A DNA stretch of 32,000 nucleotides from Pyrobaculum calidifontis JCM 11548 (GTDB taxonomy: Archaea; Thermoproteota; Thermoprotei; Thermoproteales; Thermoproteaceae): the NCBI RefSeq assembly GCF_000015805.1, contig NC_009073.1, positions 1,710,001 to 1,742,000 on the forward strand, given 5' to 3'. The number at the start of each line of letters is the position of its first letter. Position 1 is the stretch's first letter. The translations under genes were made by a program, and so were the position numbers. Below are positions 8,325 to 25,555 of this stretch, piece after piece. The notes beneath the pieces are model-generated. The model ran no database searches, had not been told where the DNA came from, and saw only the letters and a list, made by a program, of their open reading frames with translations.

Positions 8325-8524
8325 CGCTAAGCTGGCAGTCGCAGCGGCGCTCCACACGCCCCGCACCCCGACCCTGCAACCATAACAGCGGACACCCCTC
8401 AACACCGGCACCACTCCCCCAACAAGGCCCCACAGGCGTAAACCTCCTCCACCAGTCTCGTTCAAGGTCACGTGAGTCTCGCGAAAGACGGCTGGGCGGA
8501 AAACCGCCCGCCGAAGCGTCTCCG

Positions 8525-8842
8525 CTAGAAACATCCGGCGTCGCGGCACAGCTGCGAGCCGCGGCCGTGGAACTCCACCTCGACGCCGAGCCTTCCCCTG
8601 TAGTACTCTCTGACGTATCTGCCGGGCATCCTCATTCTCTCAAAACACAGCACAGCCCTCTTCTCACCGCACGTGAGAAGTCTGAGGCAAGCCTCCAGTT
8701 GCGCCACCACGTCCTCGTCTATTCCAAGGCTTGACTTGCACTCCACCGCCGCGCAGTCGCACACCGCGTCGCAGGCGGGTCCGCCCACAGAGCCGCGCCT
8801 ATTGCCAATTGTGTGGTTTTTATCTACCGGCTCGCAGCGCAT
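8525..8842 (-). CDS. small Cys-rich hypothetical protein (possible metal-binding)
   Basis: 105-aa ORF overlapping the 3' end of the upstream ATPase gene by 23 nt. Eleven Cys residues (CDAVCDCAAVEC...C..LLTC....LC). No family recognised, so coding status is uncertain. Confidence 0.35.
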   Translation of the reverse strand: MRCEPVDKNHTIGNRRGSVGGPACDAVCDCAAVECKSSLGIDEDVVAQLEACLRLLTCGEKRAVLCFERMRMPGRYVREYYRGRLGVEVEFHGRGSQLCRDAGCF

Positions 8843-9839
8843 TCTTGACTGCCCGGAGCGCCCTCTCCAAGTTCTCCAAAACCCTCAGCTGAGCCTCGTC
8901 CATATCCACCTCTCCCCCACGCAGGTCCAGCTCCTCGGCGTACGCGTCCCCCACCCTCCTCAAGTGGAACCGGTAGACCTTGACAGAGGGCCGCTCGCCC
9001 ACATCCACGCCGAGCTCCCCAGGATTCGGGTGAGCCGCCAAGGCCGCAACCCACGCAGTGAGAAGGTCGCTGTGGGTAGTGACCAAGAACCCCTTGCCCC
9101 GGGACGCCTCGGCGTATAAAAACTTGGCAAACTCAAACACGGCGTCGTCGTGGAGATGGGCCTCCGGCTCCTCAAGCACGAGATTCCGACAGCCGCCACG
9201 CCTAGCCAAATCCGCCAGAGAAACCACCATCGACGAGGGATTCCTCACCTCCACACCCCCCTCAAACACAGCCTCCTGAGAAACCACAATGTCAAACGCC
9301 GACGCCAGCCACCTAGCCGCAGCCGGGTATAGGCTATTACACCACTCCAGAGTAGACCAGGGGTAGAAAAGCGGGTCAAAATCGAAGAACCCCTCCCTCC
9401 CAACCCTCAGACTCTCCTCCACCTGCTTAGCCGCAGCCTCCACCAAGTCGCCCCCCACCTTAAAATTCCCCAACACATCCTTTTCGACAAGGAGGACTCT
9501 GCCCCCGTAGTTCAGCTTAACCACCACAGACTTCGCACCAGCCCTAACAGGAATCTCCAAAGCAAAGTCCTCGAGCTGTTGTAGAAACAGCTCAGACAAA
9601 GGCCGCTCTTTGACGGAACGCCCCCGCCTCCTCTCCGCAAGCGCCTTCGCGTACTCGACGGACGCCCTGTACAACGCCGTTGTGACAGCCGCCAGAGACC
9701 TAGCCACAATGCTCTTACCAGCCCTATTCACACCCACAAAGAGAGTAAGGCGGGCCACCTCAACCGACACCCGCTCCAAAGGCCCCAAATTCCAACCCTC
9801 AAACAGCACAGCCCCCACACACCCGGAGAATAAAAACAA
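8820..9839 (-). CDS. ABC/SMC-like (AAA_15/AAA_21, OLD-type) ATPase
   Basis: Walker A FVGVNRAGKS, Walker B plus D-loop NLVLEEPEAHLH, and H-loop VTTHSDLL. It lies 13 nt downstream of paralogue A on the same strand. The true start may be an internal GTG (9818 or 9809). Confidence 0.8.
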   Translation of the reverse strand: MFLFSGCVGAVLFEGWNLGPLERVSVEVARLTLFVGVNRAGKSIVARSLAAVTTALYRASVEYAKALAERRRGRSVKERPLSELFLQQLEDFALEIPVRAGAKSVVVKLNYGGRVLLVEKDVLGNFKVGGDLVEAAAKQVEESLRVGREGFFDFDPLFYPWSTLEWCNSLYPAAARWLASAFDIVVSQEAVFEGGVEVRNPSSMVVSLADLARRGGCRNLVLEEPEAHLHDDAVFEFAKFLYAEASRGKGFLVTTHSDLLTAWVAALAAHPNPGELGVDVGERPSVKVYRFHLRRVGDAYAEELDLRGGEVDMDEAQLRVLENLERALRAVKNALRAGR

Positions 9840-9852
9840 AACGCCCCCGGCG

Positions 9853-10878
9853 CTACCCCACGTCTACAAAAAGCGAGTAAAAATTCGCGAGGCCCGGCGT
9901 AAAGAGGCCAAGAGGCTCCCCATCAGCCGCCCTAAGCACATGCGGACAGGCGTCAGACAAAGGCCAGTCCAAGACAACGGAATTGGGAACATCCACCTCC
10001 ACCAACTGCGGAATCACAAAAGGCCTAGAACAGCCCCACCCCCGCACCTCCACCACAAGCCCCAGCCTCCTAGCCAAACCAGCCACATACCCCAGCAGAG
10101 CCTCCGCCACCCTCGCCCCCTCCTCTGCGCAAGCCACCAGCCTGGGGGCACCGCATGGGGACGCCGCTTCGTCCACGTCGCCTTGGAAAGGCTCTACCAC
10201 TCTCACATACCCCACCTCGCCGAACTCCGCCAGCGGGTTTTCCACTGTGGGCACGAACTTTGCGAGGTAAAGACCGTCGTCTCCCACGATGACCCAGCGC
10301 CGGGGCGCGCCTTCGGCCCCGTAGTCGAGCACCCCCAACACCCTGTGCCAAGCCAGCCACTGGCCCACCCGGAGGTAGCCGTTGCGCCGCCTAACCACGG
10401 GGAGCTCTTGGCCGAGGAGGGCTGTGCCTCTGCGCGGAAGAACGTGCTTCAGCCCCTCCCTACACCTCCGAAGAGAAATCAGCTCGTCATAGCTGTACTC
10501 CTCCACAGAAACAACCTCAAAACCCTCAGACACCGCCAACTTGTGCAAGATAGGGACAAAGTAGCCCCCCTCCGCCTCTATGTACATATCGCCAGACAAA
10601 AACCACCAACGCGTCGGCGCCCCAGAAGCCAGCAGAGGCGGCATACACCACGGCCTAAACTCAGCCACACCCCCACCCCACTCCCGCCCCTTCCAAAAAG
10701 ACTCCCTAAACCACCTAAGACGCCCAGCGCCACACCGCCTCATATTCTCCAACACGTCCACCATCCACTCAGCCCCCCAAAACACGCTCGTACAATAAGC
10801 CGCACCCACATAGCCGCCGCGCGCCACGCCGTAGACAAACCTATCATAAATCCTACAGCAACGCGCAATAGACGTCAT
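9853..10878 (-). CDS. uncharacterised family-1 protein, type A ('WHRVLGVLD-GDDGLY' core)
   Basis: ATG 10878 overlaps the stop of the upstream gene (ATGA at 10875..10878); the ORF track starts at TTG 10890. Shares a roughly 100-aa core and its C-terminal tail (RPFVIPQLVEVDVP..LDWPLSDACPHVL) with 24348..25304. Confidence 0.75.
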   Translation of the reverse strand: MTSIARCCRIYDRFVYGVARGGYVGAAYCTSVFWGAEWMVDVLENMRRCGAGRLRWFRESFWKGREWGGGVAEFRPWCMPPLLASGAPTRWWFLSGDMYIEAEGGYFVPILHKLAVSEGFEVVSVEEYSYDELISLRRCREGLKHVLPRRGTALLGQELPVVRRRNGYLRVGQWLAWHRVLGVLDYGAEGAPRRWVIVGDDGLYLAKFVPTVENPLAEFGEVGYVRVVEPFQGDVDEAASPCGAPRLVACAEEGARVAEALLGYVAGLARRLGLVVEVRGWGCSRPFVIPQLVEVDVPNSVVLDWPLSDACPHVLRAADGEPLGLFTPGLANFYSLFVDVG

Positions 10879-11939
10879 AAATGCCACCAATGAGCCCCCG
10901 GCCTATAGACACTACACGTATCCGCCAGCGGCCAGTCCAGCGCCTCTCTGCCTAGGGCCACCTCCTCTGGGCTTCCTAACAACACGTGCGGCACGCCCCT
11001 CTCCGCCTCGCATCTATGCCCCAAGCTTCTCAACAAGTCGGTGGTCTCTTCCGTACAGGCCACCAGCCTGGGGGCGCCACACGGAGAGGCGACGTCGTCC
11101 ACGTCCCCCTCGTAAGGCGCAACGACCTTCACGTACCCCACTTCGCCTATCTCCTCTAGAGGCTCCTTAGCGGTGGGCACAAACTCTGCAACATACAAGC
11201 CGTCATCACCCACGACTACCCACTTTTTGGCCGCCTCCCCGGGCTGGTAGTCCAACACCCCCAACACTCTATGCCAAGCCAGCCACTCGCCCACGCGCAA
11301 ATACCCAAGGCGCCTCCTCACCACTGGGAGCTCGGCGCCGAGGAGTGAGCCGCGGCCTGGAAGAGTGAGGGGTGGGCCGATGGGAGACACCACGAGGTTG
11401 TTTGCCTCGTAGGCAGTCCTGGGAGGGGGGCGGTAGAAGACGCACTTACACAAGCTGTAGTCCACCACATCCCCATAGAACCCATGCTGGCGCACAACTC
11501 TAAGCCCGCCCGGAGCCAGTACGTAGGCCACGTCGTCGGCCGGGGGGTACTTGAGGAAGTCAAAAAACTGAGCCACAGGCGCGTATACCCACCACCTAGA
11601 CCCCTCAATAGGCGGCACACAGAGGGGGCGAAAGCCCCCCTCAAAGACCCCCTCTACCACAAAGCCAAAAAGCCTCCACCAACGCCCGCCGAAGATGACG
11701 AAAGGCCTACCGCGGACGTACCCCTCGTAAGGCCACGGAGAAAAGACCTGCCCCACCAGCTCCAAAACCCTCACCCTCTTCTCGCCCCCAGGCACCACGT
11801 AGAAGACAAACCACTCCCCCACCCTCCCCACAAGGTCAGCCCAGCCCAAGTCCCACTCATCCGCATACTGAAGCAAGATGAGACGAGAAGAGCGGTAGAT
11901 AAACAGCTTAAGCTTGTAAAAAGGCGCCAGCGAAATCAT
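10875..11939 (-). CDS. uncharacterised family-1 protein, type B
   Basis: 354 aa. ATGA overlap with the upstream gene at 11936..11939. Collinear with 23014..24078, also 354 aa (CVPP..GSRWW, SPIGPP, core motif, LGHRCEAE, ALGRE..DWPL.DTC). Confidence 0.75.
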   Translation of the reverse strand: MISLAPFYKLKLFIYRSSRLILLQYADEWDLGWADLVGRVGEWFVFYVVPGGEKRVRVLELVGQVFSPWPYEGYVRGRPFVIFGGRWWRLFGFVVEGVFEGGFRPLCVPPIEGSRWWVYAPVAQFFDFLKYPPADDVAYVLAPGGLRVVRQHGFYGDVVDYSLCKCVFYRPPPRTAYEANNLVVSPIGPPLTLPGRGSLLGAELPVVRRRLGYLRVGEWLAWHRVLGVLDYQPGEAAKKWVVVGDDGLYVAEFVPTAKEPLEEIGEVGYVKVVAPYEGDVDDVASPCGAPRLVACTEETTDLLRSLGHRCEAERGVPHVLLGSPEEVALGREALDWPLADTCSVYRPGAHWWHL

Positions 11940-12973
11940 CTAAAACACCTCTCAACAGCCGACTTTAAATCCCTCTCGCCCTTAGGAACGTCGTCGAGCA
12001 AGACAAACCGCGCCACGAGCTGGCGGCCCAAGACCTGATACGTCACAAAAAGCGGCGCCACCCCCACCGACCTATCCAACGCCCTATGCCAGCGGAAAAT
12101 CTGCGACTCCACCCGCGGATAAGCCACGTACTCCAAGGCGCCGTAGCGCTCCGCCAAAGGAGCATCCACCGTCGCCCCCGACCCAGCATCCACCGCAAGG
12201 CCCACCAAGGCAACCCCCCGCCGAGTAAACCGCCGCCCATCAAAAAGCCCCTCCTCAACAAGGCGGTCCAGCTTACCCCTAAAGCCCCTGTACAAATCTT
12301 CAAACGTCCCGCCTTCCACCTTAGACACCTCAAGCCACAGAACCCGCCGGCCATCCTGCATAAGGCCAAGGGCATCTGGGCCATCCCCCCCCCCCCCCAC
12401 CTCAGACGGGAACTTGACGTTGACCACCTGCGGCAGAGGCCCGCCGTGGTACCTCAAGTTAATCACCTCCACCTCCCTAGAAAGCCTCGGCGCCATGGAG
12501 TACTGCGCCAAGTAGCCCCGGTTATACAACTCCTGCAGAAGAGCCACGTACCCCCCAACCCTAAACACCACCACCCCACGCCCCACATAGCCCACCCCCA
12601 CGGGAGGACGCCCACCCGCCTCCACAGCCGCCGCCAAGAGGCCCCACACACCCTCCCGCCCCAGCCTAACACCCTCAGGCTCCCTAGCCGCCAAAACCCC
12701 AAGCCCCACAAGCACATCCCACAGCCCCACACCCCCCACAAAGAGAGACTCCCTACCCCTAAGAGGCTTGAAGGGGATAACCCACGACGAGCCGCCCCCC
12801 TCCACCACCAACGCGTCCCCCACCACTTGTACCCTCGCCTCCGCGTGGGCCACGTGCTCTTGCGCCGCGCCGGCGGCACCTCTTTCAAACACCGCGAGGT
12901 CCGGCCAGTACAGGCGCAGGCGGCCCCCAGACGGCTCCCCCACCACCCGCCCCACCCCCAGCGACTTGTACAC
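11936..12973 (-). CDS. hypothetical protein homologous to the C-terminal third of the giant proteins; PD-(D/E)xK-like core
   Basis: 345 aa with a GTG start. GPDALGLMQDGRRVLWLEVSKV aligns with APDGLALANWNGWRVVWAEVARK (ORF 21003..22991) and LDLLGVGEGGRLVLGEVKAW (ORF 25556..28693). The tail W.RALDR..VAPLF..Y...AVERCFR* aligns with W.DAMDR.KVAPLL.VY...ALYNCFNK*. Confidence 0.7.
   Translation of the reverse strand: MYKSLGVGRVVGEPSGGRLRLYWPDLAVFERGAAGAAQEHVAHAEARVQVVGDALVVEGGGSSWVIPFKPLRGRESLFVGGVGLWDVLVGLGVLAAREPEGVRLGREGVWGLLAAAVEAGGRPPVGVGYVGRGVVVFRVGGYVALLQELYNRGYLAQYSMAPRLSREVEVINLRYHGGPLPQVVNVKFPSEVGGGGDGPDALGLMQDGRRVLWLEVSKVEGGTFEDLYRGFRGKLDRLVEEGLFDGRRFTRRGVALVGLAVDAGSGATVDAPLAERYGALEYVAYPRVESQIFRWHRALDRSVGVAPLFVTYQVLGRQLVARFVLLDDVPKGERDLKSAVERCFR
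12385..12398. repeat. C14/G14 homopolymer tract inside a CDS (in frame, encodes GGGG)
   Basis: Counted directly as 14 consecutive C on the plus strand. On the coding (minus) strand it reads gt[g ggg ggg ggg ggg g]at, giving VGGGGD. Confidence 0.9.
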
Positions 12974-12988
12974 GCGGAGGACCCCCTC

Positions 12989-13956
12989 TCAAACCCCCCG
13001 CAGAACCTCCTCCTCACCACCCCTAAGCTCCAGCTGACGCCTCTCCCCATCCCAGGCCCCCCACGCCGCCCTCCACACGCCCCCCACCTCCACCACGAAG
13101 TAGTAGGTGGCGCCCCGCCGAAACACGAGAAGCCCCTCCCCACTCCACAGCCTCTCAAACCCCTCAGGCGCCGCCCCAGACGCCGCCGCCAGGCCAAAAA
13201 AGCCGTCTACCCCAAGGACAACGTCCCCACGCCCGCGCCCCACGTCCACGAGGCGCGCCGCCACCCCCAAAAGCCTAAGCCCAGCACAGAAGAGGGGCCC
13301 CGCCCCCCGCACCCTCGCCGAGAGGTCCTCCCCAAACTCGACAGCCCTCCCGCCAACCCTAAACGCCAGCCCGCCCGCGTACGTCGCCCTCCACCGCCCC
13401 AGCCGCCCAAGCAGAGCGTCGCGGAACCCACCATAAAGCTCAAGGCCCCGGCGCCCCAGGGTAGAGGAGACCCCCACCTCCCTCAGCAGGCTATGTATCT
13501 CCGCCAAGTCCCCCCACGACACCTCTCCGCCGGCGTATATACCACCCCTAAACCTCTTCCCCACACCCCTCAGCTCAACGAGGACGGGCCTCCCCCACCT
13601 GTAAAACCAAACCCGCGCCCTAAGCCACCCACGCCCCACGTCCAAGACCTCCGCCAAGAGGCGTCCCCCACAGAGAGGCGCAGAGAAGACGCCAAACCCA
13701 GGCGGTACACAAGTCCAGCACACACCTCGCCCCCCAGCACCACAGACCCACCCACGGCCCTGCCCCCAAGCCCCTCAGCCACAGCCCCCACAGCCTCCCC
13801 ACAGCCCCCCTCCACACAGCGCAGGCGGCACCCCACAACCTCAAACACGCCCCCAAACGCGCCAAACCGCCTAGGCCCAAACACAGGCCCCAACACCCCG
13901 TCCACCTTTGCCAACGCCTCAGCAGAGACGCACACAAGCCCCCCGAGGCCTGGCAT
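12989..13956 (-). pseudogene. hypothetical gene, apparently split between two frames (13570..13956 and 12989..13723)
   Basis: Two overlapping minus-strand ORFs each look protein-like on only one side of about nt 13700-13730. A G6 run (ctggggggcgag) and a G5 run lie in the overlap. Very GC-rich, so confidence is low. Confidence 0.35.
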
Positions 13957-13994
13957 AAATAGTTAACGGACACGCCCCGCCGGGGAGAGGAGAG

Positions 13995-14008
13995 AAAAAC
14001 TTTTAAAC
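13995..14008 (+). promoter_or_regulatory. rRNA operon promoter (BRE/TATA: aaaaacttttaaac)
   Basis: This is the only AT-rich element in the GC-rich spacer, about 185 nt upstream of the 16S 5' end. The leader contains acccaccccccggg (14159..14172), complementary to cccgggggtgggt (15690..15702) just after 16S, forming a processing stem. Confidence 0.6.
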
Positions 14009-14191
14009 AAGTGTGTTCTAGGAAGGTCGCGCGTGAGGCCGGGCAAAAGCCCGGCCGAAAATCATCTTCATGTTCCCCGGACGTCCCCCCCTGGGATCCC
14101 CCAGGCCGGGGCGCCGGGGAGAAACCCCCACGCCGCCGCCGAGGAGAAGCCCGGACAAACCCACCCCCCGGGCGGCCTTGCGGCCGTCCGA

Positions 14192-15688
<1,497 letters not shown>

Positions 15689-15749
15689 ACCCGGGGGTGG
15701 GTAGTCCAAAGGGCTTCTCCTCGGCCCCGCAAACCGCCGCTCCGCACGG
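15689..15749 (+). other. 16S-23S internal transcribed spacer, no tRNA
   Basis: About 60 nt between the 16S 3' end and the 23S 5' region, too short for a tRNA. It contains halves of both processing stems. Confidence 0.8.
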
Positions 15750-16229
15750 CAAAGCCGCCCGGTGGATGGCTCGGCTCGGGCGCCGAAGAAGGGCGTGGCA
15801 AGCTGCGATAAGCCCGGGGTAGCCGCAGGCAGGCTTAGAACCCGGGATCCCCGAATGGGGCTTCCTGCCGGGGCCGAATAGGCCCCGGCGCCCCGTAAGG
15901 GGCGGGAACGCGGGGAAAGGAAACATCTTAGTACCCGCAGGAAGGGAAGCCAACAGGGACCCCCTGAGTAGGGGCGACCGAAAGGGGGATAGCCCAAACC
16001 AAATCCTCGCGGGACAACCGTGGGGAGATGTGGGGCTTGGGCCCGGGCAACCGCCGGCGGGCGGTAGCCGAAGTGGGCTGGAATGCCCCGCCGTAGAGGG
16101 TGATAGCCCCGTAGGCGAAACCGCCCGTGGCGGAGTCCCGGGGTCCCGGAGTACCTCGGCTTAGTTTTGCCGGGGGAACGCGCCGGCCACTGGCCGGCAA
16201 GGCTAAGCACGTCCCGAGTCCGATAGCGC

Positions 16230-16263
<34 letters not shown>

Positions 16264-17588
16264 GGAAGGGGGGTGAAAAGAGCCTGAAACCGGGCGGCTA
16301 CAGTGGGGCAGGCCCGAAAGGATGCCCCCTCCCGAAGGAAACCCCGGTGACGGGGGAGTACGAGGGAGGGGGTCCAGGGTCTGCCCTTACGTCTAGAAAC
16401 ACGGGCCGGGGAGTTCACGGCCGTGGCGAGCCTAAGGGGTTCAACCCCGGAGGCGTAGGGAAACCGACAGCCCGCAGCGGGGCAACCCGCGAGGGGCGGG
16501 GTCTTAAAGGGCCCGTAGTCACGGCCGTGAGACCAGAAACCGGGCGATCTAGCCCTGGGCAGGGTGAAGCGGGGCGAAAGCCCCGTGGAGGCCCGAAGGG
16601 GTTCTGATGTGCAAATCGTTCCCATGACCTGGGGCTAGGGGCAAAAGACCAATCAAGCCCGGTGATAGCTGGTTCCCCCCGAAGCGGGTCTCAGCCCGGC
16701 CTCCCCGGAGGCGGCCGGCGGGGTAGAGTACTGATCGGGGGTGCGGGAGCCGAAAGGCTCCGGCCCCCGGTCAAACTCCGAACCTGCCAGCGCCGTAGAA
16801 GGGGGGAGGCGGGGGCGGTGGGGTAAGCCTCCGCTCCGAGACGGGAACAACCGAGACCGGGGTTAAGGCCCCCAAGTGCGGGCTTAGTGTCAATCTAAAA
16901 GGGCGTCCCCCGCCCAAGACAGCGGGGCCGTGGGCCTAACAGCAGCCATCGGCTAAGCAACGCGTAACAGCGGACCCGCCGAGGCGGGGGGCCCCGAAGA
17001 TGTACAGGGACTAAGCCCGCCGCCGAGACCCCGGCCCGCGGGCCGTTGGCCCGCGTGGGGTAGGGGGGCGCGGCCGTGGGGCAGAAGCCGGGCCGTGAGG
17101 TCCGGTGGACCCGCGGCCGACGAAGATCCCGGCGGTAGTAGCAGCGAAGAGGGGTGAGAAGCCCCTCCGCCGGAAAGGACCAGGGTTTCCTGGCAACTTC
17201 AATAGGCCAGGAGTTAGCCGGTCCTAAGGCGGGGCCTAATAGGCACCCGCCGAAAGGGAAACGGGTTAATATTCCCGTGCCGCGGGGGTAGGTTCTGCGG
17301 CAACGCAGGCCCCGTCCCCGACGCCTCGGGATAGGGCGGGCGGGACTGCCGTCCCGCTTAACCGTCGAAGGCCGGGGAGTGCCGTAATGGCGAGAACCGG
17401 CCGAAGGCGGGAATAGCCGGGGGTTTCCCCGGTCCGCCCGACTCCTGGGGCCCGTGAAAAGGGGACGGGGAACGAGCCCCCGCGCCCGTACCGAGAACCG
17501 ACGCAGGTGCTCCTGGGTGAGAAGCCCAAGGCGGCTCGGGTGACCCCGGGCCAGGGAACTCGGCAAATTGGCCCCGTAACTTCGGGAG

Positions 17589-18212
17589 AGGGCGCGGCGG
17601 AGGATTTAATTTATAGGATCCATCGGAAGCTGTGAGGGACGCGAGGGAGCGTTTAAATCAACTCATTGGATTTCTTGTAGGCGATGGATTTTACTACATG
17701 AAGAGGAGCAGGAAAAACTACTTAGTTGGATTTGTCCAGAGCTCTAAGAGGAGAGAAATACCAGAAGTCTACAAATCGTTGCTGTCGATAATATTTAACA
17801 GAAAGCCCATTGAGGAAAGAGCGCCAAACAATGTAGTAAAGGTATATATCTATTCAAAAGACGCATATTATTTCTTCAAGGAGATAAAAGACGATCCAGC
17901 CAAATATTTCCGCCAAATTCCGCCGGAGGAGAAGATAAAATTCCTAGGCGGGTTCACAGACGCAGAAGGAACAGTTAAGAGGGATCGAATTATTTTATAC
18001 AACGCCAATAGGGATTTGCTCATTGAAATACAGGAATTTTTGAAGACGCTTGGAGTCAGATCTACTCTACACTACCACCATGGTGCATATGAGCTACACA
18101 TATGGGAGAAAAGGAGCAGGGAGATAATTATGGCTCTCTGTAAGAATTACTCCTCCAAAATATCCTCCCTTTTCTCTTAACTCTTTCTCTTAACTCCGCC
18201 GCGCCCCCCGAG
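17589..18212 (+). mobile_element. archaeal (BHB-type) 23S rRNA intron 1, about 624 nt
   Basis: The conserved exon sequence cttcgggag|aaggggtgcctgc is interrupted. The intron base helix gggcgcggcggag (17590..17602) pairs perfectly with ctccgccgcgccc (18194..18206). The junction is ambiguous by up to 3 nt because of a repeated 'aga'. Confidence 0.85.
17632..18180 (+). CDS. LAGLIDADG homing endonuclease (double-motif), intron 1-encoded
   Basis: 182 aa with a GTG start. Motifs LIGFLVGDGF and FLGGFTDAEGT. Strikingly AT-rich, roughly 40% GC by eye, inside a roughly 68% GC rRNA. Confidence 0.9.
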   Translation: MRDARERLNQLIGFLVGDGFYYMKRSRKNYLVGFVQSSKRREIPEVYKSLLSIIFNRKPIEERAPNNVVKVYIYSKDAYYFFKEIKDDPAKYFRQIPPEEKIKFLGGFTDAEGTVKRDRIILYNANRDLLIEIQEFLKTLGVRSTLHYHHGAYELHIWEKRSREIIMALCKNYSSKISSLFS

Positions 18213-18444
18213 AAGGGGTGCCTGCGGTCTTGGGGTATACCCCCGGGACCGCAGGTCGCAGTGGCAAGGGGGACCTGACTGTTTAACAAAAACATAGGTC
18301 CCCGCGAGCCCGTAAGGGTGTGTACGGGGGCTGAATCCTGGCCACTGGCGGTACGTGAACCCCGGGTACAACCGGGCGAAGCGCCGCTGAAGGCCGGGGG
18401 TAACTCTGACCCTCTTAAGGTAGCCAAATGCCTTGCCGGGTAAG

Positions 18445-18997
18445 GGCTGGTGGCGGGGGTCATCTTTATGTCCTCAGTAGCCTATCTGCTCGGCCTAATT
18501 GTGGGGGATGGCGGGCTGTACCTTCTCCGCTACAAAGGCGGCCGTACCGAATACAGAGTTGTGGTGACTCAAAAAGACGCCGCCATTGCCGAAAACGCGG
18601 CTAAGATGTTTCATTCGTTGCTCAAGGAGCTCGGCTTGGGATCTAAGGTTCAGGTAATAAGTGGGCGTACCCGCGTAGAGGTGCGGGTCTCGAGCAAGCG
18701 CCTTTGGCAGCTCTTCAACGACAAGCTGGCCAACCTAGAGGGCTTGGCGCCCGACGAGAGGATCGCCTTCATTAGAGGGCTCTACGACGCTGAGGGGGAC
18801 AAGACCGGGAGGAGGGCTAGGCTCTGGAACAAGAACCGCCGGCTTCTAGACCTCGTGGGGAGCTGGCTGAGGGAGTTGGGAATCGAGAGCAGAGTCTACC
18901 TTGACGACAAGAGACACGGGGTCTACGTCTTGGAGGTGCCATCCCCCTACAGAAGGAGGTTTTTCGAATTGTTGTACCCGCCCCAGCCCCCCGATAG
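18445..18997 (+). mobile_element. archaeal (BHB-type) 23S rRNA intron 2, about 553 nt, at the I-DmoI-type site
   Basis: The exon sequence gccttgccgggtaag|ttccggcgtgcatgaatgg is interrupted. The base helix ggctggtggcggg (18445..18457) pairs with cccgccccagcc (18978..18989) with one bulge. Confidence 0.85.
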
Positions 18998-19175
18998 TTC
19001 CGGCGTGCATGAATGGATCAACGAGGTCCCCACTGTCCCGGCCCGGGGCCCGGCGAACCCACCTCCAGGTGCACAGTCCTGGGACCCCCGACGGGGCGAG
19101 AAGTCCCTATGGAGCTTCACAGCAGCCTGTCGTTGCGGGGGGGCGGGGGGTGCAGAGCGTAGGTGGGAGCGATGA
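18450..19175 (+). CDS. I-DmoI-like LAGLIDADG homing endonuclease, intron 2-encoded (ORF reads through the 3' splice site)
   Basis: AYLLGLIVGDGGLYLLRYKGGRTEYRVVVTQK and FIRGLYDAEGDKT...LWNKNRRLLDLV...DDKRHGVYVLEV closely parallel I-DmoI as I recall it (AYLLGLIIGDGGLYKLKYKGNRSEYRVVITQK...). The probable start is ATG 18468. The conserved part ends near 18997. The last about 60 codons are 23S exon sequence. Confidence 0.85.
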   Translation: MAGVIFMSSVAYLLGLIVGDGGLYLLRYKGGRTEYRVVVTQKDAAIAENAAKMFHSLLKELGLGSKVQVISGRTRVEVRVSSKRLWQLFNDKLANLEGLAPDERIAFIRGLYDAEGDKTGRRARLWNKNRRLLDLVGSWLRELGIESRVYLDDKRHGVYVLEVPSPYRRRFFELLYPPQPPDSSGVHEWINEVPTVPARGPANPPPGAQSWDPRRGEKSLWSFTAACRCGGAGGAERRWER

Positions 19176-19768
19176 AACGGGGTCTCCGGGCCCCGTGGAT
19201 GCGACCCTGGAACACCACCCACTCTCCGCCCCTCCGCTTACCCGCCGCAAGGCGGGGACAGCGGCAGGCGGGCTGTTCGGCTGGGGCGGCACACCCCTGA
19301 AAAGATATCGGGGGTGCCCAAAGCTCGGCTCAGGCGGGTCAGAAATCCGCCGTAGAGTGTAAGGGCAAAAGCCGGGCTGACTGGGCCCTTGAACGCAAGG
19401 GGCCCAGGCGGGAAACCGGGGCCTAGAGAACGCTCGTGCCCCCACCAGTGGGGGCCGGGCATGACAGAAAAGTTACCCTAGGAATAACCGGCTCGTCGCG
19501 GGTGAGAGTCCCCATCGACCCCGCGGTTTGGTACCCAGACGTCGTCTCTTCCCATCCTGGCGGTGCAGCAGCCGCCAAGGGTGGGGCTGCCCGCCCATTA
19601 AAGGGGAACGTGAGATGGGTTCAGACCGTCGCGAGACAGGTCGGTCTCTACCTGTCGGGGGCGCTGGCCGCCTGAGGGGAAGGTGCCCTCAGTACGAGAG
19701 GAACGGGGCGCCGCGGCCTCTAGTGTACCGGTTGTCCGGCAGGGCACTGCCGGGCAGCCACGCCGTGG

Positions 19769-19803
<35 letters not shown>

Positions 19804-19992
19804 TCCCCGAGACGAGGCGGCCGTTGCCCTGGGGGCAACCCCGGGGCACGAGGGCTCCCGTAGAAGACGGGGTTGATGGGGGGGCGGTGTAACCCCCGAG
19901 GGTTTCCCGAGGGGAGAGCCGGCCCCTCCCAATCGCCCGAGCGTGCGGGGCGGCGGGCGAAAGGGCTGAGGCGGCGGCGTGGGGGTTCCCCT

Positions 19993-20124
19993 CTGTTTTC
20001 CTCAAGTCCTCGCCTTTTGAAACCCGCTGGGGGTAGACGGTTGCTGTGTTTTCTAGCTTTCAACGGCGCGTTGATCCCGGCGTGGTATTTTGTACAACCT
20101 CTCGGCGGTTTTTTCGTATTTTTT
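19993..20124 (+). terminator. T-run cluster downstream of 23S (putative archaeal terminators)
   Basis: T4 at 19996..19999, 20015..20018 and 20049..20052. T6 at 20109..20114 and 20119..20124. Confidence 0.35.
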
Positions 20125-20161
20125 CAACGTATTGTTTAAATATTAGAGTTTGTCGGTGGGT

Positions 20162-21154
20162 ATGCGGGTTTGGTGGCTGGTCTTGTTGGTGGCTGTTCTG
20201 GTGTTGGGGGGCAACGTGGATACTAATGGGCTTGTTCTGTTTGTTAACGATACTGGGGACTACCGGGGTTCTTACTACTTGAAGGTGTTTGATCTTCAGC
20301 GGTGGTGGGATGCGGGGTATTCTCGGGTGTTGGTTAGGGCTTCTGTGGGGGCTGAGTGGGCCTTTGAGAGGGTTGAGGGGTCTGTGCTGGATTTTGCCTT
20401 GTTTTGGGAGGATTGTACTAGTTGCGACTCCGCAGAGCCTCCTCCTGTGAAGAACGTTAATACGATTTACGAGGACGAGATTTTGAGGGTGACTTATGTG
20501 GGTGGTAGGTGGGTTGTCCAGGTGCTGTGGCACCAGGGCGGGTTTACTCACTGGGTGTATGTCAACGGCTCTCTGTTTTTTACGCACTTCGGGGGGTCTG
20601 TGGGGGGCGGCCCCTCCGGCGAGTTTTTTGGGGAGGTTCTGCGGGTTGATCTTAAGTCCTCCGGCGATCCGAGGGCTGATTCCTACGCGGTGTTTTATTC
20701 TCCTGGGTATGCGTGTCGGTCTTTGTTTGGCTTGTTGGGGTGGGCGGCTGTGCATGGGCTTGACGCTGGTGAGGCTAGTGGGTTGTTGAGGAGTTTTGGG
20801 TACTCGCTTTCTGTGAAGAGGGTTGACAGGAGGGATGGAGTGGTTTTGTTTTTCTTGTCTAACGGCTCTGTGGTGGAGGTCCCTGTGTTTTTCGAGGTGC
20901 AGTCCAACGGGACGGGGCTTTTCGTGGTGGGGAACCCGTCGTGTGTCAACGCGACGTATGTCGCCGTGGTGAGGCTTTCGGGGGGGGGGGGGGGGGAGGG
21001 GGGTGCTGAATTTCAGCTTGTCGGTTGGGGCGTGGGACGCAGTGCTGGCGGCGCCGGCTGTTTGGCGGGGGGAGGAGGCGAAGTACGACGTCTCTCTCTT
21101 CCTCTACGCCCCGCCGGGGGCGTACTCGCTGGGGAACTTCTCGGTGTCTTTTGA
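20162..21154 (+). CDS. giant secreted/surface protein D, 5' fragment (frame broken at the G17 tract)
   Basis: ATG 20162 lies 23 nt after TATA tttaaatatt (20135..20144). Signal peptide MRVWWLVLLVAVLVLGG and N-x-S/T sequons (NDT, NGS, NGT, NAT). Residues after the G-tract (GAEFQLVGWGVGRSAGGAG...) look non-coding. Confidence 0.7.
   Translation: MRVWWLVLLVAVLVLGGNVDTNGLVLFVNDTGDYRGSYYLKVFDLQRWWDAGYSRVLVRASVGAEWAFERVEGSVLDFALFWEDCTSCDSAEPPPVKNVNTIYEDEILRVTYVGGRWVVQVLWHQGGFTHWVYVNGSLFFTHFGGSVGGGPSGEFFGEVLRVDLKSSGDPRADSYAVFYSPGYACRSLFGLLGWAAVHGLDAGEASGLLRSFGYSLSVKRVDRRDGVVLFFLSNGSVVEVPVFFEVQSNGTGLFVVGNPSCVNATYVAVVRLSGGGGGEGGAEFQLVGWGVGRSAGGAGCLAGGGGEVRRLSLPLRPAGGVLAGELLGVF
20980..20996 (+). repeat. 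G17 homopolymer tract (followed by a, then G6) at a frame junction
   Basis: Counted directly: g at 20980 through 20996, a at 20997, g at 20998..21003. Confidence 0.95.
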
Positions 21155-22991
21155 CAAGCCGCGGCTTGTGGCGGGGAACCGGTCTATCGTCATGAGGCCT
21201 CTCCACGCGGTGTTTCTGCCTCTTGAGACTAGGCGGCTGGTGGACGCCTATGGGCCGTGCAACGAGGCGTTTTGGAAGGCCTTCGACGAGGTGGCGGACC
21301 CGTACGACTACTCCCTCCTGGGCGACGTCGCGCTTACGGTTATACCAGTGGGGAGGATCGCCGGCTTTTTCGGGAAGCTCCTGGGCGTGGGCAAGGCGGC
21401 TGAGAGGGCTGAGGGCTTGATCTCGGCGTTGAAGACGGTTTACTACGCGCTGGGCTCTTCCAAGTGGGCTAGGGCTGTGGGGACCGGCGTCGGCTTCGTG
21501 CTCCGGGATGCGTTCATAGCGGAGGACTTGAGGCAGATCTTAGAGCCGGAGGCGGCCGAGGAGGTCTTCTCGGCGTTTGGGGTGGACTTGGCTGAGGTGG
21601 AGCGGTTCCACGCAGGGGTGCTGACGCGGTCTTCGTGTAGCCACGCGGGCAGGTACTACGCGGCTGTGTACGTGTCTTGGGCGCAGCGGGTGTCGGCGGT
21701 GGTGGACCTCGCCTCGAACCTATACGCCAAGGTGTCGAGAGACGCGCTGGAGAAATTCGGCAACGCCTTCGTCAAGGTGGCCGAGGGGGCTAAGCTGTTT
21801 TCGCACGTCACCCATGCCGGCTACGTCGCGGCGCGGGCGTGGGGGCCGCATGAAATTGACGAGGATACGTGGGCAAAGGCCTTTACCAAGCTGGCCAGGG
21901 CCCTCACGGGGAGAGACGACGTGGCGGCCGTGGTGGCCACGACCCCCAACGGAATCGTGACGTCTGATAGGCAGTTGCACATAATTCTCGGCCTTGACAA
22001 GAAGAAAGGTGTTAACTACTTCAACCCGGGGCGGGCTGGCCGGAGCGTAAGCGTTGGGGGCCTTGACGTGTTTTATGAGGAGGGCGGTGAAGAGGCCGGT
22101 GGGTTCTACTTGGCGTGGTATGAGAAGCGGAAGCTTGTTAGGTGGACGTCTCCGGAGTTCTTCGAGGTGCTTCAGCAGAATGGCCTTGCCTGGGTTCTGC
22201 GGAGCAAGTTTGAAATGCGGAGCGTGAGGGGCGTCCGCTACGTGTGCTTCAACTACGAGGTGGAGTACGACGACGCGTTGTTCGGCGCCTTTGCGAGCCT
22301 GGCGACTATCTCCCAGTGGCACCAGAAGCTCGCCGCTCTGCCTCTGTTTTGGCTTCTCGGCCCCAGAATAGACGTGGTGCAAGCCGCCTACGAGGTGGAC
22401 ATGGCCCCGAAGGACGTGGCCGTCAAGGAGCTGGAGGGGCCGGTGGGGATGCTGGGGCTGGTGGGGTATTGGGAGAAGACCAGCTACTACCTACGCGACA
22501 TGCCGGGGGTGTATGTCCATTTAAGAGGCTGGAGGACCGGGGGCGCCGCCCCCGACGGCTTGGCTTTGGCTAATTGGAATGGGTGGAGGGTGGTGTGGGC
22601 CGAGGTGGCGAGGAAAATCGACGAGACTGTTAACAAGTTTAAGAGCAACGCGGCTAAGTTGCAGGAGGCCGGCATCTTGGCTGGGGGCTCCTTTACTCCA
22701 TACGGCTTTGCCCTCGCCGCGTTTAGGGTGGACGCGATGAGCGGTGTCACTGCGGGGGGCAACGCCTTTGGCAGTAGCCCAGTGTCTGACAAAGTCTTGG
22801 CGCATCCCCAGGCTAAGAGCAGGCTGGTGGAGTGGGCTGACGCCATGGACAGGCACAAGGTGGCGCCCCTATTGGCGGTCTACGAGGGCGATGGGCCGAG
22901 CTTCAAGGTGCGCGGAGTCTTGTTTGAACAACTCGTCGACTTTGACGACCCGGAGGTGAGGGCAGCCCTCTACAACTGCTTCAATAAATAA
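21003..22991 (+). CDS. giant protein D, 3' fragment (PD-(D/E)xK-like core near the C-terminus)
   Basis: This frame is open from 20973 and continues the homology to paralogue G across the tract (VRLSGGGGG/RGVLNFSLSV vs LRLSNKTGSSGVAHGSRLSLTNV). It has a hydrophobic segment LLGDVALTVIPVGRIAGFFGKLLGV. APDGLALANWNGWRVVWAEVARK and the C-terminal tail are homologous to ORF 11936..12973. Confidence 0.75.
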   Translation: MLNFSLSVGAWDAVLAAPAVWRGEEAKYDVSLFLYAPPGAYSLGNFSVSFDKPRLVAGNRSIVMRPLHAVFLPLETRRLVDAYGPCNEAFWKAFDEVADPYDYSLLGDVALTVIPVGRIAGFFGKLLGVGKAAERAEGLISALKTVYYALGSSKWARAVGTGVGFVLRDAFIAEDLRQILEPEAAEEVFSAFGVDLAEVERFHAGVLTRSSCSHAGRYYAAVYVSWAQRVSAVVDLASNLYAKVSRDALEKFGNAFVKVAEGAKLFSHVTHAGYVAARAWGPHEIDEDTWAKAFTKLARALTGRDDVAAVVATTPNGIVTSDRQLHIILGLDKKKGVNYFNPGRAGRSVSVGGLDVFYEEGGEEAGGFYLAWYEKRKLVRWTSPEFFEVLQQNGLAWVLRSKFEMRSVRGVRYVCFNYEVEYDDALFGAFASLATISQWHQKLAALPLFWLLGPRIDVVQAAYEVDMAPKDVAVKELEGPVGMLGLVGYWEKTSYYLRDMPGVYVHLRGWRTGGAAPDGLALANWNGWRVVWAEVARKIDETVNKFKSNAAKLQEAGILAGGSFTPYGFALAAFRVDAMSGVTAGGNAFGSSPVSDKVLAHPQAKSRLVEWADAMDRHKVAPLLAVYEGDGPSFKVRGVLFEQLVDFDDPEVRAALYNCFNK

Positions 22992-23013
22992 ATCCTCCCC
23001 CGTTTTTCGTCTC

Positions 23014-24078
23014 ATGGTCGAGCTCTTGTTTAGGGAGTGGCTTGCGGTTCGGAACATCAACTCGATCAACGACTATAAGGGGCCGTGCTCCGCGGGGGAG
23101 CCGCCGTACGACGGGACTATCGCCCTCCTCGGGAGGGCTGAGGGGGGCTTCGTCCTCGCCGTGCACGCCTCCTCAAACCGCTACTGGTTTCGGCGCATAT
23201 CGCACCTCGTAGACGTGGTCAAGGAAGGCGGAAAAGACGAGATATCGTACGTCGTGTTTGAGGGCCTGGTCTGGGCCAAGCCGATGGTGTATTTGAAAAG
23301 GGGGAAGGCAATCGTTAGGCTCATTCTAGTTAGGCGCCACACAGGCGGCTTTAAGCCTAAGTGCGTCCCGCCGCTTGGCGGCTCTAGGTGGTGGGGATAC
23401 GGCAGCTTCTACGAAGACATGCAGAAAATGACGGGCCTCAGCTACCCAGTCGGCGAGGTCCAACTCTACGTCCTCACAGAGCGCGGCCTCGAAGTACAGT
23501 GCGAGTACTGCATGTACGAGCTCCAAGAAATTATCCTGAGCCCGTGTAAGTACGCCTTCGGCGGCAGATGGCTTCCCTACTCGCCGATTGGCCCGCCGGT
23601 GAGGGCCCCGGGCGCGGGATCGCTGACCGGCGCCGAGCTGCCGGTAATAAGGCATAGGGATAGATACCTCCGGGTTGGCAACTGGATAGCTTGGCATAGA
23701 GTCCTCGGCGTTTTGGACGACGGCCGCTGGGTTTTAATTGGCGACGACGGCCTCTACGAGGCGGTTTTTCAGCCAACTGTGAATAACCCGCTGGGGGAGT
23801 TCGGCGAGGTTGGCTTCGTGAAGGTGCTGGGCCCGTACAACGGCGACGTGGACGAGGTGGCCTCCCCCTGCGGCGCTCCTAAGCTGGTGGCTTGCAACGA
23901 GGATACTAGACACCTCCTAGAGCCCCTCGGCCACAGGTGCGAGGCAGAGGGGGCCCACGTGACTCTGGTTACGAACACCCCGGTAGCGCTTGGCAGGGAA
24001 GTCGTCGACTGGCCGCTTACAGACACCTGCGGCCCTCTGCTGAGGCTAGGCGACGTGGACCTCTTCACCTGGGACTAG
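23014..24078 (+). CDS. uncharacterised family-1 protein, type B (second copy)
   Basis: 354 aa. The ATG lies 26 nt after TATA aataaataaat (22983..22993). Collinear with 10875..11939. Confidence 0.8.
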   Translation: MVELLFREWLAVRNINSINDYKGPCSAGEPPYDGTIALLGRAEGGFVLAVHASSNRYWFRRISHLVDVVKEGGKDEISYVVFEGLVWAKPMVYLKRGKAIVRLILVRRHTGGFKPKCVPPLGGSRWWGYGSFYEDMQKMTGLSYPVGEVQLYVLTERGLEVQCEYCMYELQEIILSPCKYAFGGRWLPYSPIGPPVRAPGAGSLTGAELPVIRHRDRYLRVGNWIAWHRVLGVLDDGRWVLIGDDGLYEAVFQPTVNNPLGEFGEVGFVKVLGPYNGDVDEVASPCGAPKLVACNEDTRHLLEPLGHRCEAEGAHVTLVTNTPVALGREVVDWPLTDTCGPLLRLGDVDLFTWD

Positions 24079-24347
24079 GGGCTGGCGGCAATCACTGCCG
24101 GCCTCGGCCGGCTGGTTAGACGCCGTCCTGAGTCAGGGAAACTCGGAGGGGCGTCCTTTACTGACACCCCGGTCTGATCTTCCGTCGGTCAAGACGCGTA
24201 AAATCTTGATGCCTGTCAGTCTGGTCAGGACAGGGGACGTGGAGCTGGCTTTTAGCCGGGCAAACGCGGCGGCTGTAGCCGCCGGAGCGGCCCATCGCCG
24301 GTCTGCCGCGGGCCGACAAGTTTATATTTTCGGCTGGCGGAGTTGGT

Positions 24348-25304
24348 ATGGCCGGCTGGAGCTACGTGGTGGGGAGACTCCCGCGGGGGGATCTGGTGTA
24401 CCGTTGCTACCTCAGTTTCTATAAGGACTCCTTCTACTGGGAAGGCTCTCTGGAGTGGTGGCGGCAGAATTTTAGGCTTAGGGTGATCCCCCGCGGCGAG
24501 AAGGACGACACGTATTGGGACGGCGACTTGCGGGGGTTTAGGGCGGCTTATGTGCCTCCGATGCCGGCGGGGGGCGGGTTTTCGCGGTGGTGGTGGCTTT
24601 GGGGGGTCTTCGCCTACGAGGGGCCTTTGGGGGTTTCCTACGTGGGGCTTGGGGGGGCGGCGGTGTCTGAGGGCTTCACGGCGGAGCGGCTTGGGGTTGA
24701 GCTAGAGGTTGAGAAGCTAGCTGGGCTGAGGGTGCACGGGGCTGGGGGCGGGGAGCTGGCCGGGGCGGAGTTGCCGGTGGTGAAGGAGAGGGGTAGGTAT
24801 CTCAGAGTGGGCAGGTGGCTCGCGTGGCACCGGGTGGCCGGCGTGCTTGAGGGCGGCAGGTGGGTGATCTTGGGCGACGACGGCCTCTACGAGGCGGAGT
24901 TCGTGGCCACTGCCAAGAACCCGCTGGAGGACTTCGGGGAGGTCGGCTTCGTGAAGGTGCTGGCGCCTTACGGAGGCTCTGAGCAAGACGTCGCCTCTCC
25001 CTGCGGCGCGCCTAGGCTGGTGGCGTGTAACGAGGAGGGGCTGAGGGTGGCCGGCGCCGTGTTGGACTACGTGAGGAGGGCGCTCAGGGAGGCGGGGGTG
25101 GAGGGCGTAGACCTCTTCGTCCCGTCCTCTTGGCGCTGCGCGAGACCTTTCGTCATCCCCGAGCTCGTGGAGGTGGACGTCCCGGACGAGGCGATCCTCC
25201 ACTGGCCCCTCGCTGACCCTTGCCCCCACGTCCTTAAGGTAGCCGCCGGCGACCCGCTAGGCCTCACGACCCCCGCCACGTGCTTCATGTGCTGGGAGTG
25301 GTGA
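24348..25304 (+). CDS. uncharacterised family-1 protein, type A (second copy)
   Basis: 318 aa. The ATG lies 23 nt after TATA tttatatttt (24321..24330). Collinear with 9853..10878 (RPFVIPELVEVDVPDEAILHWPLADPCPHVLKVAAGDPLGLTTP). Confidence 0.8.
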   Translation: MAGWSYVVGRLPRGDLVYRCYLSFYKDSFYWEGSLEWWRQNFRLRVIPRGEKDDTYWDGDLRGFRAAYVPPMPAGGGFSRWWWLWGVFAYEGPLGVSYVGLGGAAVSEGFTAERLGVELEVEKLAGLRVHGAGGGELAGAELPVVKERGRYLRVGRWLAWHRVAGVLEGGRWVILGDDGLYEAEFVATAKNPLEDFGEVGFVKVLAPYGGSEQDVASPCGAPRLVACNEEGLRVAGAVLDYVRRALREAGVEGVDLFVPSSWRCARPFVIPELVEVDVPDEAILHWPLADPCPHVLKVAAGDPLGLTTPATCFMCWEW

Positions 25305-25555
25305 TGGAGAGGCCTTACAGCCGCTGGTTCGGCGGGTCGCCTCTGCTCATACACGGGCCGCGCGGCGGGGCTTAAGTCCGGGGAGGGGCGGTGCGGTGGG
25401 GAGGGCGGGGCGGAGGCGCGTGCTTGCGGTGTACGGGGAGGGGGCGGAGATCTTCGTCGAGCGGTCGCTGAGGGGTTGCTCGCAATGAGGCGGGGACCGC
25501 CTGGCGGCTGGGGGCTTCTTGTCACCAAGACCGGCGGCGCGGGGGCTATTCTGCC

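Follow-up and report, generated by a model that had tools for sequence, protein, structure and literature searches.

We analyzed a 32,000-nt stretch of the Pyrobaculum calidifontis JCM 11548 chromosome (NC_009073.1, positions 1,710,001 to 1,742,000; hereafter the window, numbered from its first letter), in which a single rRNA operon on the plus strand (Rfam RF01959 for 16S, RF02540 for 23S) lies between two sets of related genes that we call the left and right arms (Table 1). The left-arm genes, all on the minus strand and closely packed, are X, C, B, A, an ATPase gene, and a small Cys-rich open reading frame (ORF); the right arm comprises D, E, F, G, H, and I. An earlier reading of the sequence alone (the sequence-only reading) had listed genes of both arms, and the coordinates and strand that it gave for E, F, C, B, A, the ATPase, and the Cys-rich ORF were recovered here. 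D and X, each listed as one ORF, are both split: the 2830 nt of D consist of two ORFs (D1 and D2) separated by a run of 17 G, and the 968 nt of X are spread over two frames. The ATGA stop/start overlaps that had been described between C and B (11936-11939) and between B and A (10875-10878) are present, a gap of 13 nt separates A from the ATPase gene, and the Cys-rich ORF overlaps the stop of the ATPase gene by 23 nt.

Table 1. Features of the two arms and of the rRNA operon between them (positions in the window; HMM, hidden Markov model)
Feature	Position	Strand	Evidence or remark
D, large modular protein, frameshifted in the window	20162-22991 (ORFs 20150-21154 + 21003-22991)	+	
G17 tract splitting D	20980-20996	+	G7 in L005 and L036
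E, B-type core-domain protein, 354 aa	23014-24078	+	
F, A-type core-domain protein, 318 aa	24348-25304	+	
G, second large protein	25556-28693	+	proximal part of ectodomain homologous to that of D; frame problems at 5' end
H, protein with two divergent core domains	28730-30781	+	core HMM at 29369-29548 and 30302-30481; direct repeat D3
I, single divergent core-domain protein	30771-31685	-	blastp and core HMM; direct repeats D4, D6
Partial core-domain ORF	31622-31999	-	family member by blastp/HMM
X, two overlapping ORFs in different frames, very G-rich	12989-13723 + 13570-13956	-	
C, C-terminal module of D type without an ectodomain (orphan; part of Dc1 + Dc2)	11936-12973	-	HMM Dc2 7e-56, Dc1 9e-15
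Poly-G tract G14 (coding strand), inside C	12385-12398	-	differs in length from one assembly of the strain to another
B, B-type core-domain protein, 354 aa	10875-11939	-	core HMM 1e-67
A, A-type core-domain protein, 341 aa from ATG at 10878	9853-10878 (ORF to 10890)	-	core HMM 5e-78
ABC-type ATPase (AAA_15/AAA_21), 339 aa	8820-9839	-	PF13175 1.9e-9, PF13304 4e-7
Cys-rich small ORF, 105 aa, 10 Cys	8525-8842	-	ends the left-arm string; independent assemblies also call it as a gene
rRNA leader/promoter region	13988-14190	+	left edge of similarity to other Pyrobaculum rRNA loci (blastn)
16S rRNA	14191-15689	+	Rfam RF01959
23S rRNA	15738-19952	+	Rfam RF02540
Intron-like insertions in 23S	17593-18209, 18445-18995	+	absent from L001, L002, L008

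The two arms are paralogous well beyond chance. As the sequence-only reading had noted, the genes correspond in mirror image across the rRNA operon: B matched E (blastp, 50% over 275 aa; E = 2e-77), A matched F (48% over 291 aa; E = 1e-71), and C matched the C terminus of D (31% over 159 aa; E = 4e-15), this last match being extended by HMMs over part of Dc1 and over Dc2, the C-terminal domains of D. A and B also resemble each other (45% over 260 aa; E = 4e-51). Common to the B-type, A-type, H, and I proteins is a core domain of ∼110 aa, which is 70 to 100% identical across the family and has the consensus ELPV..R..YLRVG.W.AWHRV.G.LD…WV..GDDGLY.A.F…GEVG.V.V..P..G…SPCGAP.LVAC.E … DWPL.D.C; among the invariant residues are one His and three Cys, and the B and A types are told apart by their N-terminal domain and C-terminal tail. 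Since H has two copies of the domain, I has one, and the partial ORF at the right end of the window has a further one, the family has been expanded rather than merely duplicated. Homologues of B (n = 39) all come from Pyrobaculum and are all annotated as hypothetical. E is 100% identical in one related metagenome-assembled genome (MAG; L005) and 99.7% identical in another (L012), and 22 contigs, in differing surroundings, encode exactly the F protein. Between B-type and A-type proteins, core identity reaches 93 to 96% in some lineages (P0018/P0026, P0006/P0027, P0013/P0028), compared to only 71 to 74% within the pairs of the window, and there are chimeras with a B-type N terminus and an A-type tail (P0020-P0022). 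The sequences suggest concerted evolution or gene conversion between neighboring B-type and A-type paralogues.

The large proteins of the right arm are modular. HMMs resolve D into an ectodomain (Decto), Dmid, Dc1, and Dc2, with a hydrophobic stretch after the ectodomain, and a TATA-like box (20130-20147) stands ahead of the gene; judging from boxes of this kind, D, E, F, G, and H may each have a promoter of their own. An intact relative, P0040 (900 aa), is encoded in related MAGs. In another D variant, P0052 (624 aa), the ectodomain and the start of Dmid are joined straight to Dc2, which is kept despite the internal deletion. D1 and G share an N-terminal stretch by blastp; profile-profile comparison (hhalign) confined the likeness between D and G to the proximal ectodomain (probability 96%), the C-terminal parts being unrelated.

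A survey of other Pyrobaculum genomes and metagenomes yielded ∼25 loci with sequence 5' of a B-type gene. In all but one of them (L038), Dc1-Dc2 lay directly 5' of that gene, which bears out the conserved order of D-type C-terminal module, B-type gene, and A-type gene that had been proposed. The unit of the locus therefore appears, by gene neighborhood, to be the C-terminal module of D (Dc1 plus Dc2) together with a B-type and an A-type gene; for G, the corresponding unit would be its C terminus together with H. Such units also recur in tandem arrays (L031, L032, L037, L042, L045, L046, L049), where a full-length D and further genes are followed by an N-terminally truncated D, lacking both signal peptide and ectodomain, with its own B-type/A-type pair. 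The intervening stretch holds extra B-type/A-type pairs (L031/L032), unannotated sequence, or an ankyrin-repeat protein (L049). The last of these (1186 aa; L049 4962-8522) overlaps the end of D and precedes an orphan D C-terminal cassette; a small ORF matching Ank is present in L030.

C-B-A in the window is an orphan cassette of the same kind, devoid of an ectodomain and placed in a tight string with the ATPase gene and the Cys-rich ORF. C comprises Dc1 positions 59-167 and the entire Dc2 (HMMs built from orthologues), and inspection of its sequence revealed neither a signal peptide nor an ectodomain. Relatives of C are few (5 in 5.8 billion proteins). Two longer ones (P0100, P0101) extend into a D-like "RWT" region, and in P0102 the last part of X1 runs on into the beginning of C in one frame, which suggests that X and C together are the remnant of a larger gene. 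X, for which Pfam, blastp within the window, the family HMMs, and PHROGs gave no homologues, is probably what is left of the N-terminal part that was formerly fused to C.

The right arm is found in the same place in other members of the genus. The order rRNA, D, B-type, A-type, and usually G was observed at at least nine other Pyrobaculum loci, namely in P. ferrireducens (L001), MAGs (L002, L005-7, L012, L029), Pyrobaculum sp. WP30 (L010), and metagenome contigs (L043, L049). Every rRNA-bearing locus that we recovered has it except that of P. oguniense, where D is present and E and F are lacking. By this comparison, the right arm is the ancestral one. On the other side of the operon, all five relatives that extend 5' of 16S (L001, L002, L005, L007, L008) carry HTH-VIT1-UbiD on the minus strand, and these include MAGs that are 98 to 99% identical to the window over 13988-26871. 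Blastn similarity to the five starts at 13985-13988, ∼13 nt from a TATA-like box at 13995-14010. The window is 96 to 97% identical to P. oguniense in this region, close to the ∼96% reported between P. oguniense and P. arsenaticum (PMC3558965). A rearrangement peculiar to this strain, with its breakpoint at 13988, set the left arm next to the rRNA promoter. An assembly chimera at the rRNA operon was considered and rejected: the left junction is spanned by Logan contig L014 (100% identity over 1936-14223, into 16S) and by L015 (99.98% over 1349-14151), which derives from SRR606249, presumably a mock community of cultured strains.

How the mirror layout arose was approached through the similarity of the arms. 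The sequence-only reading had spoken of two inverted copies. Taken as duplication, this did not survive: at ∼50% protein identity, the arms are about as far apart as orthologues of different species. A recent duplication of the right arm was rejected on this identity, on DNA similarity that reaches at most 74% over at most 312 nt, and on a clade-specific insertion shared by left-arm B and A (DYQPGEAAKKW / DYGAEGAPRRW) that a few metagenomic relatives also carry. Nor do the arms look capable of inverting the rRNA segment between them, as had been suggested; the only inverted repeats that they share are 178 to 179 nt long and 73 to 74% complementary, lie in core-domain coding regions, and are too diverged for homologous recombination, and with no long inverted repeat of high identity, arm-mediated inversion is unlikely. 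Inversions bounded by duplicated genes are known from Pyrobaculum populations (PMC3558965), and one inversion carrying the rRNA operon could explain the layout. The blocks of conservation stop where the operon does, near 13988 on one side and near 19985 on the other, and a metagenome contig (L053, 1-7933) carries the C-terminal part of D (D-CT) and a core cassette convergent with the 23S 3' end, opposite to all other rRNA-adjacent copies; the flanks of the rRNA operon are therefore recurrent rearrangement points.

Comparison of close relatives revealed a mosaic. Relative to L012, the first 600 nt of D could not be aligned, 20750-21950 was 65 to 81% identical, and 21950-25750 (the D C terminus, E, and F) was 100% identical, after which identity fell to 83 to 93% in the G ectodomain. 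D orthologues carry two unrelated types of distal ectodomain on otherwise orthologous proteins. Relative to L005, the window was 99% identical up to 26871, where similarity vanishes, placing a recombination breakpoint in G near this position; for the G protein, identity was 100% across aa 100-418, then ∼45% as far as aa 640, and ∼20% after that. Two C-terminal alleles of G stand behind identical F, each with its own H variant (a two-domain H in the window and L034; a one-domain H' in L028, L029, and L030). D therefore varies in its N-terminal ectodomain in front of a conserved C terminus, and G varies in its C terminus. Boundaries as sharp as these, with 99 to 100% identity elsewhere, point to recurrent exchange between strains.

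Several of the large genes are also interrupted at simple-sequence tracts. The G tracts in C and D both encode Gly runs and are the only homopolymers of ≥8 nt in the 32-kb window; no run of that length was found in seven related loci scanned at the same threshold, and in another nine loci, examined for runs of ≥7 nt, none exceeded 7 except a G14 at the start of L034. The C tract is G14 in the window, L014, and L020, G11 in L015 and L024 (in frame), and G16 in L022 (frameshift); P0099 is a product frameshifted at this tract. At the D tract, otherwise near-identical relatives have G7 and an intact D. L034, an independent contig from the window's own population, has ≥14 G at this site, where its sequence begins, so the expanded tract is not peculiar to one assembly. 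In L035 (∼1150-1170; window ∼21085-21095), (TC)6 in place of (TC)4 frameshifts D, and near 25848 in G, G5 (window and L012) versus G4 (L005) shifts the frame of the signal-peptide-like start. In that region (25635-25860), the frame that starts with the ATG at 25656 runs for only 21 codons before a stop, and a second frame contains the signal-peptide-like sequence (SGILGVLLLALSALA); the window and L012 have the long G ORF in the third frame, whereas in L005 it is continuous with the second. Tracts in coding regions that vary in length and shift the frame, the pattern by which phase-variable genes are recognized, are thus present in the locus.

Further breaks were found in P. ferrireducens (D and G split) and P. 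oguniense (D split). Secondary stops are absent from the broken genes of the window, and D2 matches the intact P0040 at 100% identity, arguing that the breaks are recent or reversible. Inactivation of D or G in these two species, in L035, and in the window, together with the loss of E and F from P. oguniense, could instead mark an ordinary lineage-specific family of surface glycoproteins and cytoplasmic partners, with some structural or housekeeping role, that expands, rearranges, and decays neutrally in a genus prone to slippage at homopolymers, its mirror layout being an accident of a single rearrangement. Mononucleotide runs are reportedly unstable in P. aerophilum, which we count toward this account, as we do the many repeat families of Pyrobaculum and its inversions bounded by duplicated genes (PMC3558965). 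Nevertheless, we regard it as improbable: species whose versions of these proteins have diverged by ∼50% still share the order of the triad and its place beside the rRNA operon, strong purifying selection acts on the core domain, and long G tracts are confined to large cassette genes. Neutral decay also sits poorly with broken genes that are free of secondary stops and match an intact allele, and with mosaic boundaries that are sharp between strains 99 to 100% identical elsewhere.

The composition of D and G suggests where they are located. D orthologues start with a hydrophobic, signal-like sequence (MRVxxLLxLVxGLVLG). The first ∼300 to 430 aa, the ectodomain, contain 6 to 11 N-x-S/T sequons compared to 1.3 to 2 expected (5- to 6-fold enrichment), and the remaining 560 to 650 aa contain 0 compared to ∼1 expected. 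The hydrophobic stretch after the ectodomain is moderate in D and indistinct in G. We infer that the N-terminal part of both proteins is exported and glycosylated and that the C-terminal part stays intracellular; D and G are probably surface proteins. A, B, E, F, and H have 7 to 12 Cys each, no sequons, and no hydrophobic segments, and A in particular (10 Cys) is predicted to be cytoplasmic.

None of proteins A to I could be assigned to a named family, in agreement with what had been concluded from the sequence alone. Searches of Pfam, NCBIfam, PADLOC, and PHROGs gave nothing, even when thresholds were relaxed for isolated domains and when 28 distant members of the family were used as queries, and neither did sequence-profile searches of the PDB (alignments A1 and A2). 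A profile search of 1.84 billion cluster representatives returned 52 proteins only. Ten clusters that we looked up came from Pyrobaculum, Thermoproteus, and one Thermofilaceae MAG, with all named members annotated as "hypothetical" or "conserved within P. aerophilum" (the latter being the P. aerophilum member). Models of PaREP1/PaRep2, with which comparison had been suggested, matched no protein of the window, though they do match neighboring genes in L001 and L008. A viral or plasmid origin was rejected, since no relatives were found in phages (tblastn with E, D, and G), in plasmids (with the C-terminal part of G, G-CT), or in an IMG/VR scan. AlphaFold2 gave a poor model of B (predicted local distance difference test score, pLDDT, of 56.5), whose Foldseek result carries no weight, and a confident one of the C-terminal 313 aa of D (pLDDT, 81.8; predicted template modeling score, pTM, 0.83), for which Foldseek found no match below E = 0.1 in the PDB and BFVD.

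C and D had been described as PD-(D/E)xK-like. What recalls that nuclease fold is a "PDG/PDA…(W/L)xEV" pattern on two consecutive predicted beta-strands followed by a helix and, in G-CT, a D…EVK. For C and D, this assignment was not upheld: Pfam gave no profile match (to E ≤ 10) and Foldseek no significant one, and the lysine is not conserved. The D of PDG/PDA and the E are conserved, E-V is followed by A, E, G, D, or S, and K or R occurs only at +3 and inconsistently (EVEN, EVGS). In G-CT, which is not homologous to D-CT, D-x(12-13)-EVK is present in both alleles.

This last motif bears on whether the locus is a true polymorphic toxin-immunity system, in which D-CT and G-CT would be exported toxins, possibly nucleases, B-type, A-type, and H proteins would confer immunity, and C-B-A would be an orphan cassette. 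Signal-peptide-like N termini, the jump in G from a conserved N terminus to a variable C terminus, the gene 3' of G that co-varies with the G-CT allele, and the orphan C-terminal cassettes of the tandem arrays would all be expected of such a system, and the noise-level Foldseek matches of D-CT include HincII, EndoMS/NucS, and exonuclease VIII. Every one of these matches, however, has E > 0.1 and a template modeling (TM) score of ≤0.24; no toxin domain was found in Pfam, NCBIfam, or PADLOC, and no secretion, processing, or pre-toxin domains were seen. Moreover, the lack of sequons in the C-terminal 560 to 650 aa suggests a cytoplasmic location, D varies in its ectodomain instead of its C terminus, the putative immunity core is conserved rather than diversified, and two or more immunity proteins of 320 to 360 aa per toxin would be unusual. 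We therefore consider a toxin-immunity system in the strict sense a poor prospect.

The left-arm ATPase raises the question of antiviral defense. Its best-documented likeness is generic: it is an ABC-type ATPase of a clan common in defense systems, and in PADLOC it matched NsnB (1e-13) and also AriA, mad3, and the N-terminal part of GajA. Pfam and PADLOC detected no nuclease or TOPRIM domain, and the PADLOC models Old and GajA align to the ATPase part only; at 339 aa, with AAA_15/AAA_21 alone and no TOPRIM, the protein does not merit the name OLD-like that it had been given. The Cys-rich ORF beside it has no match in Pfam, PADLOC, or PHROGs. Conceivably, a membrane-anchored sensor (the D/G ectodomain) could be linked to effectors in the cytoplasm (the ATPase, D-CT, and the core-domain proteins), with variability driven by viruses that exploit or escape the surface protein. 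The string that the left arm forms with a defense-type AAA_15/21 ATPase, next to an McrBC-like pair, would suit this idea, and so would the hypervariable ectodomains and the on/off frameshifts, which are typical of receptor genes under viral pressure. We nonetheless hold it to be unlikely, because the ATPase stands beside an A/B pair in this strain alone among >40 loci examined (the Cys-rich ORF is likewise strain-unique in this association), none of A to I has a PADLOC match, the chromosomal position is fixed beside the rRNA operon and not in mobile defense islands, and D and G are frequently inactivated.

We give about even odds (probability roughly 0.5) to the reading that this is a hypervariable cassette locus of Pyrobaculum/Thermoproteaceae, resembling polymorphic toxin systems (PTS) and the VARTIG system of Thermococcales in organization, with a role in conflict or recognition and a normal position directly 3' of the single rRNA operon. 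That these genes serve in conflict or self-recognition had already been proposed, with a caution about function that proved justified, and this remains, by analogy, the best reading of their evolutionary pattern. If so, D and G would be variable molecules for contact or recognition, displayed by the cell on its surface, and their C-terminal modules would act with cognate core-domain partners, as effector and partner or as effector and protector. Ectodomains and C-terminal cassettes would be swapped between strains by recombination, for which the ultraconserved rRNA operon, judging from the positions of the breakpoints, may serve as a homology anchor in the import of divergent alleles; simple-sequence tracts within the large genes would change length and shift the reading frame, and orphan cassettes may form a reservoir for switching. 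By analogy with PTS and VARTIG, the contest could be between cells, between virus and host, or a matter of self/non-self discrimination. The most specific form of the proposal, an archaeal polymorphic surface-protein/effector cassette system with new folds, rRNA-anchored exchange, and on/off switching by simple-sequence repeats, we put forward as a rather doubtful one.

Several points weigh against a cassette system of this kind. Only G appears to fit the classical PTS pattern, and the co-variation of G with H involves just two alleles. No toxin, nuclease, or immunity domain was detected in Pfam, NCBIfam, PADLOC, or PDB profiles. Classical immunity proteins co-diversify with their toxin, unlike the partner core here, which is 70 to 100% identical. 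Surface exposure is deduced from inspection of the sequence and from sequon statistics, and the putative membrane-spanning stretch is weakly hydrophobic (Kyte-Doolittle, ∼1.6). Differences in tract length between assemblies could in part be artefacts of sequencing or assembly, D and G broken in several genomes would fit plain gene decay as well, and the idea of an rRNA anchor is drawn only from where the breakpoints lie.

Some neighboring features were also recorded. An McrBC-like pair on the minus strand (4995-7861) adjoins the left arm and consists of a 530-aa AAA_5 protein and a 425-aa partner. The McrBC adjacency claimed previously is solid for the McrB-like gene (6269-7861; PF07728, AAA_5, 1.2e-15), which has a weak EVE-like match at its N terminus; the McrC match (4995-6272; PF10117, McrBC, E = 0.0012) falls below the Pfam cutoff. 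An nSTAND3-like NTPase lies nearby in L020, past the left end of the window. The 23S gene spans 4215 nt, compared to 2987 nt for the model, and each of its two insertions holds a LAGLIDADG ORF (17632-18180, PF14528, 2e-13; 18450-19175, PF14528, 3e-18). Sets of insertions vary among related strains, and some sit in 16S (L001, L005, L008). Between the divergent X and rRNA genes is a near-palindromic TATA-like element (AAAAACTTTTAAACAA; 13995-14010), which falls inside the stretch shared with the rRNA loci of other Pyrobaculum; it is probably part of the rRNA promoter and could serve transcription both ways.

Conflict and self/non-self systems of archaea, notably of Crenarchaeota, are barely known, and this locus would be a second example beside VARTIG and unrelated to it. 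We know of no archaeal example of phase-variable contingency loci; if the proposal is correct, this would be, to our knowledge, the first contingency-type phase-variable locus in Crenarchaeota. The locus adds two protein families without detectable relatives, one of them with a confidently predicted structure that has no match in the PDB or BFVD, and suggests that a conserved rRNA operon may anchor allele exchange. It offers handles for experiment: a fixed chromosomal address, defined cassettes, natural alleles behind identical flanks, and tracts that predict on and off states. Even neutral expansion would explain a recurrent hotspot of assembly breaks and pseudogenes beside the Pyrobaculum rRNA genes.

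Among known systems, bacterial phase-variable contingency loci are matched in the long G tracts and (TC)n within coding regions of predicted surface-protein genes and in tract lengths that differ between assemblies and switch the frame. They differ in that one tract here is in the ectodomain-less orphan C and in that the variation is known from assemblies, not from switching within a clone. To the polymorphic toxins CdiA/CdiI and Rhs, the likeness lies in G, with its conserved N terminus and abruptly different C terminus between close strains, in a downstream gene linked to the C-terminal allele, and in arrays of truncated orphan cassettes, for which an immunity function would be putative. In contrast to those systems, the locus has no recognizable toxin, pre-toxin, Rhs/filamentous repeats, or secretion partner, its C-terminal parts are probably cytoplasmic, its partners are large, paired, and conserved, and D varies in its ectodomain.

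VARTIG, described by Makarova et al. (2021; PMC8416519), consists of a large secreted protein with a variable C terminus and small proteins that align to that C terminus, in a PTS-like layout, and its authors reported no counterpart outside Thermococcales. There is no sequence relationship: D, G, and H have no Ig/CARDB match in Pfam, Pyrobaculum is not a member of Thermococcales, and the partners described here share one conserved Cys-rich core in a locus that appears rRNA anchored and contains simple-repeat frameshifts. The resemblance is thus one of organization only. Both systems are archaeal and lineage specific and, as far as the analogy goes, combine a large signal-peptide protein whose regions are swapped by recombination between strains with smaller proteins that align to its C-terminal part and with variable downstream genes, in a PTS-like layout whose function is unassigned. 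In this comparison, we consider the Pyrobaculum locus a candidate, of moderate interest, for a polymorphic surface/conflict module of a new archaeal type.

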